Part shown: positions 9,101-27,110 of the stretch, in pieces | How the letters are laid out: the number at the start of each line of letters is the position of its first letter | Position numbering within the stretch: the first letter of the stretch is position 1 | Assembly (NCBI GenBank): GCA_964359945.1 | Contig: CAYHUM010000003.1 | Coordinates: 1-35,253, forward strand | Origin: Candidatus Woesearchaeota archaeon | Lineage (GTDB): Archaea; Nanobdellota; Nanobdellia; SCGC-AAA011-G17; CAYHUM01 | Length of the DNA stretch: 35,253 nucleotides | Direction: 5' to 3' | Notes under the pieces: model-generated | What the model was told of the DNA's origin: nothing | What the model saw: only the letters and a program-made list of their open reading frames with translations | Database searches by the model: none | Made by a program: the position numbers and the translations under genes

Positions 9101-9186
9101 GCCCCGGTAGCTCAGCCTGGTAGAGCACATGGCTGTTAAAATATATAGAAACCATGCGGTCGGGGGTTCAAATCCCTCCTGGGGCG
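9101..9186 (+). tRNA. tRNA-Asn(GTT) with 12-nt intron at 37/38 (9139-9150)
   Basis: Acceptor GCCCCGG/CTGGGGC, anticodon stem CATGG/CCATG, T-arm GGGGG-TTCAAAT-CCCTC; BHB central helix CTGT/ATAG; TTTAAAG about 25-30 nt upstream; no encoded CCA. Confidence 0.93.
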
Positions 9187-11880: not shown

Positions 11881-13080
11881 ATGAACTCAAAAACACATTT
11901 ACAAGAAGAATTAGTAAAAGCAGTAAACGATCTTGGCTTTGTTGAATTTACCGAGATTCAAAAAAGAGTTATACCTTTAATACAAGAAGGAAAGGATGTT
12001 ATAGCACAATCTCTTACAGGATCTGGAAAAACAGCTGCTTTTGGGTTACCAATAATAGAAAAAACAATATACGGGCAAGGTTTACAAGTCTTAATTTTAG
12101 TTCCAACAAGAGAGTTATGCGAACAAGTTAATAAGGAGATGCATAAGTTTTCTAAATATAAGAAGTTTAATATTTTAGCAGTGTATGGTGGAGTTTCAAT
12201 AAATCCTCAAATTCAAAAATTAAGGAATGCAGATATAGTTGTTGGCACTCCAGGAAGAATCCTAGATCATATTCAAAGACATACAATAATCTTAAGCAAA
12301 GTCAGAATTCTAGTTTTAGATGAAGCAGATAAGATGTTCGAAATGGGATTTATAGATGCAGTAAAAAAAATAATATCTTATCTAAATAAAAATAGACAAA
12401 CTTTATTGTTTAGTGCTACAATTTCTTCACAAGTTCATAATATAGTTAAGAATTACATGAAAACCCCCATAATGGTTAAAACTAAGTCATATATTGATGA
12501 GGAAAATATAGTACAACACTATTATAATGTTAATTCTAGAGAAAAATTTTCTCTATTAGTTCATTTATTAAAAGAAGAAGACAAAGAATTAACAATTATC
12601 TTTTGTGCAACCAGAAGAATGGTTGATATACTCTCTAAAAATCTAAGCCATTTAGAAATTAGATCAGGTAAATTGCACGGAGGATTATCTCAAAATAGAA
12701 GGAAAGAGGCTATTGATATGTTTCATAGTCATAAGTTTAATATTCTCGTAGCAAGCGATGTTGCAGCCCGAGGCCTAGATATAAAAAATGTTTCCCACAT
12801 AATTAATTATGATATTCCTAAAACTTCTAATGAGTATGTTCATAGGATTGGAAGAACTGCAAGAGCAGGGAGTCATGGAAAAGTTATTTCTTTACTTTCA
12901 GAAGGAGATTATGATAACTTTAGAAACGTTTTAGAAGACAAATCTTTAATTCTTCAGAAAATAGGATTACCAGAGTTTCAAAAGATTCCATTAATTAAAC
13001 AACAACATAGAAACTTTCACAATAGAGATCATTTTCATCACCAAAAAGGATTTCATAAAAGAAGTTTCAGAAGACACTAA
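11881..13080 (+). CDS. DEAD-box RNA helicase (ATG start 11881 preferred over GTG 11869)
   Basis: Q motif, TGSGKT, PTREL, TPGR, DEAD, SAT, ARGLD, HRIGRTAR; His/Arg-rich tail. Confidence 0.95.
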   Translation: MNSKTHLQEELVKAVNDLGFVEFTEIQKRVIPLIQEGKDVIAQSLTGSGKTAAFGLPIIEKTIYGQGLQVLILVPTRELCEQVNKEMHKFSKYKKFNILAVYGGVSINPQIQKLRNADIVVGTPGRILDHIQRHTIILSKVRILVLDEADKMFEMGFIDAVKKIISYLNKNRQTLLFSATISSQVHNIVKNYMKTPIMVKTKSYIDEENIVQHYYNVNSREKFSLLVHLLKEEDKELTIIFCATRRMVDILSKNLSHLEIRSGKLHGGLSQNRRKEAIDMFHSHKFNILVASDVAARGLDIKNVSHIINYDIPKTSNEYVHRIGRTARAGSHGKVISLLSEGDYDNFRNVLEDKSLILQKIGLPEFQKIPLIKQQHRNFHNRDHFHHQKGFHKRSFRRH

Positions 13081-14093
13081 TTTTTTTCTTTTGAATATGC
13101 TATACTTTTATTTAAGGCGTCTGTAGTTTCTTTTAAGTCCCCACCAAATAAAAATAAATCAGGTAAATTGTTATTGTGAATATACCACCAGTTTAAATTT
13201 TCTTTCTCAGCTTTTAACAATTTTTTTAATTTTAGTTTCTTAAATTCACTTTTATACCTTACTAGAACATTATTTGCCATCTTATAATGAAAATCTATAA
13301 ATTTTTTATTTAGGATAGGAAATGGATATAACATTAATCTATCTTCTAAATCTTTATTTAAAAACCTAGAAATTAAAGTAGCAACACTACCAAATGTAAA
13401 TCTATGCTCATCTATCTTAAACTTTTTAGATGTAGATTCAAATAATGCGGCTTTAGTTTCATCATAAGGTATTAAATTTATCCATGCCTCATAAATATGA
13501 TCTCCTTTAGAGTTTAAAGGTAAATAAATTAATTTAAATGTATTTTCAGGTTTTTCAGAATCAAAAGATGGAATTTCTCCTACACAACGATCACTGTAAT
13601 CATATATTTTTACATTTCCACTACAATAAACTCTTAATCCTCTATAATCTTCTAATATTGGTAAAACCTTTGGTAATGTATCCAAAGAACCAATACCTCT
13701 CCACATTATTCCTCTACACGATGCATTTACTGATCCATTTTTACTTTCTTTATTTCTTCTATATTTCCAATAAGCTAAAGATCTATGTATAACTTTTTGT
13801 GGGTTTATTTTCTTGTCTATACATTCCCTTTGGCTTTCTGGTAAATCAATAAGTCTACACTCGTTATAAGTTTTCCAAAATTCATTAGAACTCATTTCTG
13901 TTAAGGGGTTTTCTTTATATGTAGGTAATATGTAGTTATTTTCAGATATAATAAAATATTCATCATCTCTCAAATTTTCTATAATCCCAACTAATTCACT
14001 GTTACCTTTAAAATCAGTTTCAACTAATTTTTTCTTTTTAATTTCAGTTAAAGGTAAACCATCCACATATTGTTCTAAATTACTTATTGTCAT
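13077..14093 (-). CDS. Hypothetical protein
   Basis: 338-aa ORF in AT-rich DNA, ATG about 23-30 nt from a minus-strand TATA-like CTTAAATA; no family recognised. Confidence 0.75.
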   Translation of the reverse strand: MTISNLEQYVDGLPLTEIKKKKLVETDFKGNSELVGIIENLRDDEYFIISENNYILPTYKENPLTEMSSNEFWKTYNECRLIDLPESQRECIDKKINPQKVIHRSLAYWKYRRNKESKNGSVNASCRGIMWRGIGSLDTLPKVLPILEDYRGLRVYCSGNVKIYDYSDRCVGEIPSFDSEKPENTFKLIYLPLNSKGDHIYEAWINLIPYDETKAALFESTSKKFKIDEHRFTFGSVATLISRFLNKDLEDRLMLYPFPILNKKFIDFHYKMANNVLVRYKSEFKKLKLKKLLKAEKENLNWWYIHNNNLPDLFLFGGDLKETTDALNKSIAYSKEKN

Positions 14094-14108
14094 GATTATT
14101 ATTAAGAT

Positions 14109-14149
14109 AAAAAAATATTTAAGTGTATCTTTCTTATTATCTAGAAAGA
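14109..14149. promoter_or_regulatory. Shared bidirectional TATA element plus 7-bp inverted repeat
   Basis: AAAAAATATTTAAG reads as TATA-like on both strands between divergent genes; TCTTTCT-N8-AGAAAGA at 14128-14149. Confidence 0.45.
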
Positions 14150-14151
14150 AA

Positions 14152-14865
14152 ATGAGAGAAGAAGCTATAGAACTGATTAAAAAAGGATATTCTTTAAATA
14201 AAATAAAAAGTATAACGGGAATAAATAAATCCTCACTGTACTATCATTATAAAAAAATAAATGGCAGAAAATATAATTTAATAAAAATAAATGATTGTAA
14301 TAAACAAAAAATTGGAGAGTTTATTGGAATCTTTACGGGAGATGGTAATTTTTTCTTCGATAAAAACAAACATCATTATAGAATAACAATTTATACAGGA
14401 TTATATGAAGAAGATTATAGGAAGCATCTAAAAAGATTATTTAAAGATCTATTTTCAAAAACCCCTAGAATTTATAAAAATTACAAAACTAATGTTCAAC
14501 TTACACAGTATTATTCTAAAGATATTTACTTATTAATTAAAAGATATCTTACTTGGAATAAAAATAAAACTAAATCAGTTAGACTCAAGAAAATAATGTT
14601 TAATGAGCAGAATTTCCTCATCGGATTTTTAAGAGGGCTATTTGATACTGATGGCGGGATTTATAAAAAGAAAAATAAAGTAGCATTCGGAACAGCTTCA
14701 AAATATTTAGCATATCAAATAAGAAACATACTTAAATCATTTAATTTGCCTCCAGGATTTTATAAGTATAGTAATAAAGATTTCTATTATATTGACTTAT
14801 ATGGTGATAGAACAAGAAGATTTATGAAACTAATAAAACCTAATAACACTAATAAGATTTTATAG
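14152..14865 (+). mobile_element. Free-standing HTH plus double-motif LAGLIDADG homing endonuclease gene
   Basis: N-terminal HTH (GYSLNKIKSITGINKSSLYYH); motifs IGEFIGIFTGDG and LIGFLRGLFDTDG with acidic residues intact; no intein Cys/His-Asn ends; ATG 14152 preferred over 14092. Confidence 0.88.
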
Positions 14866-14948
14866 CAGTAGTAGTTCAGTGGTAGAATTTCGGCTTCCCA
14901 TTATTAAGGAAATAGCTGATGACCCGAGTTCAAATCTCGGCTACTGCA
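14865..14948 (+). tRNA. tRNA-Gly(CCC) with 13-nt intron at 37/38 (14901-14913)
   Basis: Acceptor GCAGTAG/CTACTGC, anticodon stem TCGGC/GCTGA, T-arm CCGAG-TTCAAAT-CTCGG; BHB central helix TTCC/GGAA; followed by a T-run. Confidence 0.93.
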
Positions 14949-15009
14949 CTTTTTAAGTCAAATGAAATACTGAAAAAGTTTAAATACAACTACTTATTAC
15001 CAAATAACT

Positions 15010-15449
15010 ATGAAAAAAAGGCATTACATATTAATCGTGCTTATTTCTTCTATAATATTTATTAGTGGATGTGCACAACTAAATTATGTATGTTATGATG
15101 GTACTGTAGTTTCTACTCATTCACTATGCCCTAAAGAGACTGAGATAAATTTTGAATTAGCTAATCAAAAATTTGGTCATTACAACAATGAAAGTAGGGA
15201 TTATTGGGCAGCGGATGTAACTTGTGATACGGAGTTTTAAAAAATCACAAATCTGATATAGAAAATGGATATATCAAAAATGTTATGTGTTATATGAGGG
15301 CTGTAGAACCTGAACCACCTAAAGAATATGAGTGTGCAACTGGGTTCTTTACTCAAGATAGAATAAATAACGGTAAATTTACTGGATGTCATACATCTGT
15401 ACATATATATTGTAGATGCAAATATCAAATAAGTTCGCCAACCCAATAA
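15010..15449 (+). pseudogene. Frameshifted Cys-rich lipoprotein-like gene
   Basis: Signal/lipobox-like FISGC and CYDGTVVSTHSLCP; stops at TAA 15238-15240 within TTTTAAAAAA, but the -1 frame is open for 70 codons (LKNHKSDIENG...CRCKYQISSPTQ*) to 15449. Confidence 0.65.
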
Positions 15450-15493
15450 TTTTATTTAATGAATTGCAAAAACATTTAGCTACCACTTTTATA

Positions 15494-15736
15494 TCATCTT
15501 CTTCTCTTAGTAACCCATTTGCCACTCTTAATTAGAACCTTATAAGTCGGACTTGATAATTTAAGCTTATAATCAGAAATTTTATTAATCTTTTCATATT
15601 CGTTTACTATTTTATGATCAATATTCTCTTTCTCTTCAGAAGTTTTTGCTTGTTCTCGTTGTTTTTTAAATAGGTTAATCTTATCAAAATGAATCTTTTC
15701 CCTAATATATAATTTATCTATTGATTTTTTAGTCAT
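15494..15736 (-). CDS. Small basic hypothetical protein
   Basis: 80-aa ATG ORF filling an intergenic gap, coiled-coil-like. Confidence 0.55.
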   Translation of the reverse strand: MTKKSIDKLYIREKIHFDKINLFKKQREQAKTSEEKENIDHKIVNEYEKINKISDYKLKLSSPTYKVLIKSGKWVTKRRR

Positions 15737-15863
15737 TTTTCATTTAAAATCATTAAAATATATTACTTATTTATCTATAATAACAATTATAATAATCCAC
15801 AAACTATTTAAGTTTTTCTATATTATCTATTATAAAGTAATTAAAATTAAGGGGGGAATATGA

Positions 15864-16343
15864 ATGAATAAAATCATAAAAGGATTAACATTAACAACAA
15901 TAGTTTTAGGTTTATCAATTTCTTGTGGGAAAAAAGAACAAAAAGTTACTGAACCTGCTCCAAAACCAAAAACAGTACAAGAATTACTAAATGAAAAACT
16001 TAGCCCTAATTATACAAATGTAAAAGATGGATTTATTAATTATCAGGTTACATCTACTAACCATTTATGGGAAATAGTAAGGACATATTCTAATCATTAT
16101 TACCAAGTTGTTCATAAAAGAAATGCAACACCTGGAGAAGTTGACAGTAAAGTAGTAGAAACAATAAGACTTAATCAAGATTTAGCTAAAAAATATGAAA
16201 ATTTAAATGAAACAAACTTTTTTGGGGGTTTTGAAGATGAAAATTTACTAATCATTCCTAATCATATAGAGACTGGTGATGTAGTAAAAATAAAACCTTA
16301 CTTAATCTCATCTAATGGAGGAGGAATAATAATAGATTTATAA
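15864..16343 (+). CDS. Putative lipoprotein with degenerate, interrupted LysM-like motif
   Basis: Signal peptide ending LSISC; YQVTSTNHLWEIVRTY ... IPNHIETGDVVKI; GGGGGG SD-like run upstream. Confidence 0.7.
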   Translation: MNKIIKGLTLTTIVLGLSISCGKKEQKVTEPAPKPKTVQELLNEKLSPNYTNVKDGFINYQVTSTNHLWEIVRTYSNHYYQVVHKRNATPGEVDSKVVETIRLNQDLAKKYENLNETNFFGGFEDENLLIIPNHIETGDVVKIKPYLISSNGGGIIIDL

Positions 16344-17048
16344 ATTTTTTATTACCTCTTTCCATTCTTCATAGTTTAATTGATAAACTAATTTATTATT
16401 AAAACTAAAATTAGGGATTTTTTTAGTAGCATCAAACTTATTTAATTCAAAAATTTTCTTAAAAGAATCTCTAGTTGCGTTTTTTAATTTCTTATCATTT
16501 TGCAAATAAATCTCTTTTATTAATAATTCTTTTTTTGATAATTTCTTTGGAATTATCTTAATAACATTAGAACTAACTCTTGGCATAGGTTCAAAAGCCT
16601 CTTTATTTACTTCTTCTAAGATAGCAATAATAAAAAAGATAGGCATTAAAATAGAAAGCAAACTTTTTTCTTTTGTTAATCTTGAAGCAAATTTATATGG
16701 AACTGTAAAAATAGCTAATTCAAAATTTATATTTAATAACTTATTCAATAACGGTTCACAAATATTATATGGTAAATTACTTACGATTTTATTAAATTTC
16801 AATTTATTTATTAATTTTAAAATATTTCCCTCTATTACCTCAACATTCTTTAATTTTTTATCTTTTAATGTTTTTACTAACACAGAATCAATTTCCACAG
16901 CGATAACTTTACATTTCTTACATAGTTCTTGAGTTAAATTTCCTGTACCAGAGCCTATTTCAAGGACAATATCATTTTTATTTAAACTAGCATAACTAAC
17001 TATTCTTTTAATTAGTTCCTTATCTATTATAAAATGTTGGTCTAACAT
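16338..17048 (-). CDS. rsmA: 16S rRNA adenine dimethyltransferase KsgA/Dim1
   Basis: LDQHFIID, VLEIGSGTGNLT, AVEID, VSNLPY, FEPMPRVSS. Confidence 0.93.
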   Translation of the reverse strand: MLDQHFIIDKELIKRIVSYASLNKNDIVLEIGSGTGNLTQELCKKCKVIAVEIDSVLVKTLKDKKLKNVEVIEGNILKLINKLKFNKIVSNLPYNICEPLLNKLLNINFELAIFTVPYKFASRLTKEKSLLSILMPIFFIIAILEEVNKEAFEPMPRVSSNVIKIIPKKLSKKELLIKEIYLQNDKKLKNATRDSFKKIFELNKFDATKKIPNFSFNNKLVYQLNYEEWKEVIKNL

Positions 17049-19222: not shown

Positions 19223-19356
19223 TGCTCCTGGCGAGACTTTCACTAAGGATGCAGGTTGATAAGGACGCAATCCTTATTTTGAACTCGCGTCTCGGCCTTT
19301 CTATAATTATAAATTTCGAGAGGGCCGAATCCTTAACCGGGCTAGACTACAGGAGC
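19223..19356 (-). tRNA. tRNA-Glu(CTC) with two introns: 18 nt at 37/38 (19299-19316) and 41 nt at 59/60 in the T-loop (19237-19277)
   Basis: Acceptor GCTCCTG/CAGGAGC, anticodon stem CGGCC/GGCCG, T-stem GCGAG/CTCGC; T-loop BHB helix TTCA/TGAA with AA|A and AG|T bulges; TTTATATA promoter at 19382-19389 on the minus strand. Confidence 0.9.
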
Positions 19357-26863: not shown

Positions 26864-26870
26864 CAAAATA

Positions 26871-27110
26871 ATGAAAGAAGAACTGATAGGAAATCAGATA
26901 GAGGTAATAAAATCTAAAAATAAATCTCTAGAAGGAATCAAAGGTAAAATAATAGATGAGACTAAAAATACACTAACGATAAAAACAAATTCAAAGATTA
27001 AAAAAATCATAAAGAATCAAACAATAATGAAAATTAAAATCAAAAATAAGATATTGCAAGTAAATGGAAAAGAAATCCAGCAAAGACCAGAGGACAGGTT
27101 AAAAAAATGA
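26871..27110 (+). CDS. rnp1: RNase P protein subunit Rpp29/Pop4
   Basis: ELIG..V..S.N..GIKGKIIDETKNTL, RPEDRLK; conserved operon position. Confidence 0.92.
   Translation: MKEELIGNQIEVIKSKNKSLEGIKGKIIDETKNTLTIKTNSKIKKIIKNQTIMKIKIKNKILQVNGKEIQQRPEDRLKK

Follow-up and report, generated by a model that had tools for sequence, protein, structure and literature searches.

Free-standing homing endonuclease genes are known, and the SegB gene of phage T4 encodes one of them, a GIY-YIG endonuclease in a phage tRNA gene cluster. To our knowledge, SegB displays neither end-on docking on a tRNA gene, nor a reading frame running into the tRNA, nor clades that keep to one isoacceptor. LAGLIDADG domains also occur together with a helix-turn-helix (HTH) domain in WhiA, a vertically conserved bacterial regulator whose HTH is C-terminal and whose LAGLIDADG part lacks catalytic residues. 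Archaeal bulge-helix-bulge introns encode nothing, and their gain and movement is an old question, especially for tRNA introns at unusual positions in small archaea and for mRNA introns, which are very rare. In cyanophage S-PM2, the free-standing F-CphI gene adjoins the intron-containing psbA gene, a case of collaborative homing (Zeng, Bonocora & Shub 2009, as related in PMC6083498). That phage system pairs an enzyme of the Endo VII type, F-CphI, with a self-splicing group I intron (PMC6083498). Here we analyze a 35,253-nt stretch of DNA from a Candidatus Woesearchaeota archaeon (contig CAYHUM010000003.1, positions 1 to 35,253; hereafter the window), in which a free-standing LAGLIDADG endonuclease gene ends on an intron-containing tRNA-Gly(CCC) gene. 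Similarly to F-CphI and psbA, a free-standing endonuclease gene stands beside an intron-containing conserved gene; the window locus differs in its LAGLIDADG enzyme, its 13-nt protein-spliced archaeal mini-intron and its cellular genome. T4 SegB has in common with the window gene the association of a free-standing homing endonuclease with tRNA genes and differs in belonging to another nuclease family and being phage-borne. With a probability of about 0.7, we read the locus as a tRNA-docked homing endonuclease gene that is an optional insertion, has captured a tRNA promoter and would cut unoccupied tRNA-Gly(CCC) alleles, the intron being linked to the cut site. The features of the locus are, in window coordinates:

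14152..14865, + strand: free-standing HTH plus double-LAGLIDADG homing endonuclease gene, 237 aa; the G of its TAG is tRNA base 1.
14158..14262, + strand: N-terminal three-helix HTH-like domain, aa 3-37; weak Pfam support, modelled helices at aa 3-10, 15-22 and 26-37.
14314..14346, + strand: LAGLIDADG motif 1, GEFIGIFTGDG, with D64; G55, E56, G59, F61, G63, D64 and G65 invariant in 23/23 homologues.
14623..14655, + strand: LAGLIDADG motif 2, GFLRGLFDTDG, with D167; F159, G162, D167 and G168 invariant in 23/23 homologues.
14865..14948, + strand: tRNA-Gly(CCC) gene; 56.2 bits with Rfam RF00005, 58.4 bits with a custom tRNA model.
14901..14913, + strand: intron of 13 nt, TTATTAAGGAAAT, inserted one base 3' of the anticodon (canonical position 37/38; ARAGORN).
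14111..14126, + strand: box AAAAATATTTAAGTGT, resembling a TATA box with B recognition element (BRE), 2.6 bits; probably the native tRNA-Gly promoter.
14826..14841, + strand: promoter-like box GAAACTAATAAAACCT in the last codons of the endonuclease gene (K-L-I-K-P), starting at -39 from tRNA +1; 4.5 bits.
14133..14863, no strand: optional 731-nt segment (the whole endonuclease gene), absent from one contig of sequencing run X6.

The open reading frame (ORF) list gives a + strand frame at 14152-14865 that terminates with TAG at 14863-14865. A first-pass annotation of this DNA had proposed a free-standing, apparently intact HTH-LAGLIDADG endonuclease with acidic residues in both motifs, and Pfam, alignment and structure modelling agree: by sequence and predicted structure, the product is a single-chain LAGLIDADG homing endonuclease, intact and with its HTH at the N-terminus. 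The start given there, 14109, belongs to the TATA-like box and has to be given up; the likely start is the ATG at 14152, where the N-termini of homologues align. LAGLIDADG_3 matched aa 155-228 (5e-14), and LAGLIDADG_2 matched the first domain (aa 58-138) at 1e-4, below the Pfam cut-off. Matches of the HTH (aa 3-38) to HTH_psq and HTH_7 were weak; homologues bear HTH_7, HTH_23, HTH_28 or HTH_38 labels. The nearest homologues (P0002-P0024) are 55-67% identical to the window protein, and D64 and D167 are invariant in all 23 aligned. The AlphaFold2 model (mean pLDDT, the predicted local distance difference test score, 93.3) shows the pseudo-dimeric alpha-beta-beta-alpha-beta-beta-alpha fold, with a Foldseek probability of 1.00 to I-DmoI, PI-PfuI, I-SceI and I-Tsp061I; the top Foldseek matches were the TliVMA and PI-PfuI intein endonuclease domains, I-DmoI, I-SceI and I-Tsp061I. 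The two-domain LAGLIDADG fold is thus common to the modelled protein and I-DmoI, I-Tsp061I, PI-PfuI and TliVMA (E 4.5e-10 to 9e-8; template modelling scores of 0.66-0.78, normalised to the target, for I-DmoI and I-Tsp061I), as is the single acidic residue per motif to I-DmoI-type enzymes. Unlike these four, which are encoded within rRNA introns or inteins, the window gene is free-standing and lies outside its presumed tRNA target; its protein carries the extra N-terminal HTH, and sequence similarity is marginal, the best match in a sequence search against solved structures reaching only E=0.065. No intein ends or flanking intron halves are present, as had been stated: the gene has its own ATG, and the ORF lies wholly 5' of an intact tRNA whose intron measures only 13 nt. 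An intron- or intein-encoded endonuclease was considered and rejected, the frame being neither within a spliced intron nor fused in a host protein.

Eight DNA sequencing runs from two studies contain the stretch, and contigs of four of them were compared over window positions 12000-17000. One X6 contig (depth 2.5) joins 14132 to 14864 with 16 other letters in between and then continues into an uninterrupted 84-nt tRNA block, in which the intron is thus present. Because this contig is without the 731 nt, the endonuclease gene is optional in the population. A promoter position-weight matrix was built from 24 tRNA promoters of the same genome; the 60 nt upstream of these 24 tRNA genes share the consensus AAAA(C/G)GTTTAAAAAC starting at about -38, with 17 of the 24 starting between -39 and -36. 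On the gene-less allele, AAAAATATTTAAGTGT would by arithmetic start at -39 from tRNA +1, which is the canonical spacing; in the window, 41 nt separate its start from the endonuclease ATG. Elsewhere in the order, 19 unoccupied tRNA-Gly(CCC) genes likewise have AT-rich boxes, located at about -38 to -24. The comparison supports the view that the 731-nt gene is an optional insertion in the ~17-nt spacer between the TATA box of the tRNA and its +1, which has placed the resident tRNA promoter 41 nt upstream of the endonuclease start codon. The earlier proposal that a selfish gene entered between a tRNA and its promoter thereby gains the support of one gene-less contig, with the TATA-like box then at -39. 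The arrangement in the window also suggests an endonuclease mRNA that is leaderless or near-leaderless and driven by the captured tRNA promoter. Across the family, 19 of 29 members have their best promoter-like site at a similar place, starting 33-41 nt upstream of the start codon.

Given how regular the tRNA promoters of this genome are, its tRNA transcripts would carry hardly any leader. Short direct repeats at the two junctions (TTATTA..TAG and GATTTT..TAG) resemble the 16 letters of the gene-less allele and were judged too AT-rich for interpretation. The same X6 contig also skips 14948-15794, a second presence/absence difference beside tRNA-Gly(CCC); these 847 nt hold two small ORFs, one of 76 aa and lipoprotein-like, the other of 80 aa on the - strand.

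We then consider the family as a whole. In the order, 33 matches at E<=1e-20 were found in 30 of 239 genomes, a patchy distribution; one of them (L062) runs off its contig, which leaves 32 assessable loci. All family loci were searched with a custom tRNA covariance model (R1), which missed a multi-intron tRNA-Pro in L069 that was read by eye. The 3' end of the endonuclease ORF overlaps a tRNA or lies within 5 nt of its end in 28 of the 32 members, and in L066 the ORF spans a whole antisense tRNA; the remaining four lie 28, 33, ~75 and 99 nt away. It is always the 3' end of the endonuclease gene that faces the tRNA, with 14 members co-directional (docked on the tRNA 5' end) and 18 convergent (docked on the tRNA 3' end). 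A separate draw from other orders of the class, which left out one locus from an unpublished genome, gave 12 of 14 loci that overlap a tRNA and a thirteenth that lies 10 nt away. With ~30 tRNAs per 0.8 Mb, adjacency by chance is calculated at well under 1%. Since three free-standing LAGLIDADG ORFs run into tRNA 5' ends within this one genome (contigs C3, C4 and C8) and the arrangement recurs family-wide, the adjacency of endonuclease and tRNA is far beyond chance.

Docking is also specific. On the protein tree, 10 labels combining tRNA identity and orientation need 9 changes, the minimum; shuffled labels needed a mean of 20.6, and none of 200 shuffles was as low. Each clade keeps one isoacceptor, which is Gly(CCC) in the clade of the window: the seven nearest members, including the two nearest relatives from other orders (L152 and L153, read by eye; 44-45% identity), are all co-directional on tRNA-Gly(CCC). 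The starred clade of the tree that holds the window protein comprises five members docked on Gly(CCC) and two on Glu(CUC). The patchy presence, the gene-less contig in the same population and decayed copies are consistent with mobility of the family. The tRNA-anchored family that had been suspected in DPANN archaea is supported: it is a large set of free-standing endonuclease genes in DPANN-type (Nanoarchaeota-class) archaea, each with its 3' end on one particular tRNA. No description of such tRNA docking by archaeal LAGLIDADG genes turned up in literature searches. Free-standing homing endonucleases are known; the target class and the geometry of docking and promoter swap are new.

Directly before the TATA box, many members (L048, L050, L053, L056, L057, L058, L067, L069 and others) carry a conserved GC-rich block in otherwise AT-rich DNA, for example ...ACGCGCGTGAGG and ...CGCGCCAGG; the window's copy is without it. 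It could represent the mobile unit's left end.

The presumed target gene in the window is the only CCC isoacceptor detected in the genome. It was missed by default ARAGORN and read when introns were allowed; in the predicted fold, GGA of the intron is paired to UCC in the anticodon loop, with 3 nt left bulged. Rfam RF00005 places tRNA base 1 on the G of the endonuclease TAG, which agrees with the overlap described in the first-pass annotation. The endonuclease frame lacks a stop codon and reads on into flanking DNA until it meets one, here formed by T-A and G1 of the tRNA. Where the frame enters a tRNA, it is often stopped by conserved tRNA letters, namely U8-A9-G10, which reads TAG in the sense direction, and the T-loop, which reads TGA in antisense. 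ORF-tRNA overlaps in such genomes are real, a caution for annotators.

The intron tends to accompany occupancy. Among seven occupied Gly(CCC) genes, five have an insert of 11-17 nt at 37/38, one has a T-arm insert (L047) and one has none (L043), whereas an intron is present in 1 of 19 unoccupied genes of the order (L082), a biased sample drawn by BLAST with an intron-less query that missed the genome's own gene. In convergent members, an insert frequently separates the 5' strand of the T-stem from the T-loop at a distance of ~25-30 nt from the docked end, as read by eye. Co-spread of intron and endonuclease, as had been proposed, is matched by an apparent association (6/7 versus 1/19, the latter in the biased sample) and not by a strict linkage, which L043, L082 and the X6 contig break. 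As in collaborative homing, the endonuclease gene lies beside, and not inside, the intron-containing presumed target gene.

A parallel case comes from a protein gene. A paralogue on contig C23 of this genome belongs to a group in which 11 of 12 close relatives lie directly upstream of alba, the twelfth running off its contig. A frame-breaking insert of ~30 nt is present, always at one position, in 12 of the order's 30 best alba loci. Six of these 12 have a C23-type endonuclease gene upstream (four intact, two short remnants), against none of the 18 intron-less alba genes (Fisher p ~0.0016, calculated on genomes that are not independent). A statistical association of gene and intron, as expected in collaborative homing, is seen for alba and, less cleanly, for Gly(CCC). 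The alba family shows all expected stages, that is, intact gene with intron, decayed gene with intron, intron alone and neither; the pattern looks like a homing cycle and fits collaborative homing by analogy.

In the mechanism that we propose for the window locus, the captured tRNA promoter would drive a leaderless endonuclease mRNA, and the tRNA would arise either by transcription from the box in the gene's 3'-terminal codons or by RNase P cleavage of read-through RNA. The predicted enzyme would cut unoccupied tRNA-Gly(CCC) alleles, which would acquire the gene as the break is repaired. By analogy with collaborative homing, the cleavage site is probably marked or disrupted by the small intron, which lies 36 nt into the tRNA. 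Several points weigh against this reading. The gene-less allele is a single contig of low depth (2.5) whose left side extends for only 32 nt. The upstream box (2.6 bits) is weaker than the gene-internal one (4.5 bits). The first-pass annotation had called for a comparison with empty orthologous loci in relatives: no synteny was found with any gene-less relative that would define the ancestral empty site, and between an occupied genome (G182) and an unoccupied one (G184) only the tRNA is shared. The sample of unoccupied Gly(CCC) genes is biased towards intron-less ones, and related genomes are not independent, by which all p-values are overstated. Finally, L043 has the gene without an intron, and the X6 contig and L082 have an intron without the gene; because these three break the pairing, the intron is not the sole determinant of immunity.

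Two other accounts of the gene itself were weighed. It would be very improbable for the protein to be a domesticated, vertically inherited DNA-binding regulator of the WhiA type that came to lie next to tRNA genes by coincidence. Such a regulator would likewise combine HTH and LAGLIDADG domains, Pfam gives a weak LAGLIDADG_WhiA match (E=0.069), and WhiA structures appear at Foldseek ranks 42 and 47; homing endonucleases outrank them in that search, both catalytic Asp residues are invariant, and the HTH is N-terminal and not C-terminal as in WhiA. Patchy distribution (30/239 genomes), a presence/absence polymorphism within one population and pseudogenised copies (L047, L052, L021, L022 and L026) also speak against vertical descent of this kind, and a WhiA-like regulator was rejected. 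Only slightly better is the chance that the cassette inserts inside the tRNA gene and overwrites the tRNA end with its own replacement 5' part, in the manner of mobile endonuclease ORFs of fungal mitochondria. The continuation of the reading frame into tRNA sequence in most members would suit such an overwriting, but no leftover tRNA fragment was found by blastn-short in the 500 nt upstream at 42 loci, bar a 12-nt T-loop match in L043, and the gene-less contig differs outside the tRNA, not inside. A mobile cassette with a spare gene end of the fungal mitochondrial type is thus not supported for this family, no displaced target end being seen at those 42 loci apart from the L043 match.

How the tRNA is expressed downstream of the insertion bears on a further account, in which the tRNA has lost its promoter and comes only from an endonuclease-tRNA co-transcript, and the RNase P cut at UA/G is a selected off-switch that leaves the endonuclease with a stop-less mRNA. 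The overlap of the stop with tRNA +1, the native TATA box upstream of the endonuclease gene and the presence of genes for Rpp29 (at 26865-27107, encoded in the window as had been noted) and Rpp30 (C40:4019-4426) would all be expected from it. Moreover, 10 of the 14 co-directional genes have their stop at or inside the tRNA, as do the paralogues on C4 and C8, and an RNase P cut of read-through transcripts would remove it. The position of the stop, however, is not conserved: in relatives it falls before the tRNA (1 nt before in L046, 28 nt before in L051), at +1, at bases 5-7 or 8-10, or as far as 48 nt inside, the internal ones spanning 4-48 nt. RNase P is not involved in the 18 of 32 members whose gene is convergent with the tRNA, and its RNA gave no RF00373 match at E<=0.001, which in a 95%-complete genome is not evidence of absence.

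Promoter-like boxes inside the 3' ends of the genes argue in the same direction. At canonical spacing, the score of GAAACTAATAAAACCT is reached by 3.2% of random genomic windows, and 5 of the 24 real tRNA promoters score no higher. Part of this box encodes a conserved L-I-K-P motif that is also present in the convergent member L012, so that the box taken alone is ambiguous. Median box scores at canonical spacing were 4.5 bits in co-directional genes (n=19) and -2.2 in convergent ones (n=23; Mann-Whitney p=6e-4), and 6.9 versus 1.6 over a wider search range (p=4e-5), the members being related and not independent. Judged from their sequences, co-directional cassettes thus seem to provide the tRNA with a substitute promoter that lies in their final codons. 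Given this enrichment and the 4.5-bit score, GAAACTAATAAAACCT is a candidate replacement promoter, and a tRNA-specific start from it is plausible. Since stops vary in position, most members are convergent and promoter-like boxes lie inside the genes, we argue that the UA/G overlap is a by-product of docking and not a tuned switch; the off-switch put forward by the first-pass annotation gains no support as a designed feature and is unlikely.

The docked arrangement of the window locus is repeated within its own genome (772 kb in 60 contigs). A paralogue on C4, 30% identical, extends by 15 nt into tRNA-Val(UAC), whose D-loop holds a 31-nt insert, and a LAGLIDADG ORF on C8 (23191-22538) runs 17 nt into the tRNA listed below. 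With one insert behind the acceptor stem and one on each side of the anticodon loop, this tRNA was missed both by Rfam at E<=1 and by model R1:

G000:C8:22410-22554, - strand: tRNA-Leu(UAA), 145 nt, three inserts; read by segment removal and ARAGORN.

A tRNA flanks this tRNA-Leu(UAA) on each side. Three more free-standing LAGLIDADG ORFs abut protein genes, namely alba, rtcB and a radical-SAM gene. The ORF at C23:3029-4329 (L005/L102) reads in frame into exon 1 of alba, where a candidate mRNA intron of ~30 nt breaks the frame after ...GNKPFMKF. At C60:105-1000 (L003), the ORF overlaps the ATG of rtcB, the tRNA ligase gene, whose frame is broken after ...MPDGH by a hairpin-forming insert of 32-35 nt, another candidate mRNA intron. 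A 430-aa ORF at C26:5102-6394 overlaps the start of the radical-SAM gene by ~35 nt. In other genomes of the order, a distant clade of C23-type endonucleases (L115, L117-L121) lies directly upstream of a small glutaredoxin/NrdH-like CxxC gene.

A broader proposal, which we hold tentatively and at less than even odds, is that end-on-docked LAGLIDADG genes (at tRNAs, alba, rtcB and the glutaredoxin-like gene) create and spread the protein-spliced mini-introns of DPANN tRNAs and mRNAs, gene and intron moving together by break repair. If so, each lineage would cut its target tens of bases from the docking end, and a mini-intron at that place would be its immunity mark; cassettes that dock on a 5' end would swap promoters, taking that of the host gene and supplying a new one from their last codons. 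The docked family would then be a concrete candidate agent for intron spread, since its isoacceptor-specific genes lie outside the target and are associated with a nearby mini-intron. It would also illustrate a tidy, harmless entry of a selfish gene into an essential promoter-proximal site, and it supplies compact nucleases that, from their sequences, probably recognise tRNA-gene DNA.

LAGLIDADG domains also occur inside two long frames of this genome, of 648 aa (C6:25024-26970) and >742 aa (C40:1-2228), where they are probably inteins in host proteins. Inserts are common in its tRNAs, being carried by 17 of 30 ARAGORN calls. The sixth tRNA of the window, missed by Rfam at its gathering threshold, is one with two:

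19223-19356, - strand: tRNA-Glu(CUC), 134 nt, inserts in the anticodon loop and T-arm; custom model 46.7 bits.

The earlier remarks on the window's other tRNAs and their TATA-like boxes hold. tRNA-Val(CAC) follows tRNA-Glu(CUC), as had been noted, at a distance of 41 nt and has no promoter-like box of its own. Strong boxes, with starts at -38 to -40, precede the tRNAs at 9101, 9245 and 20212.

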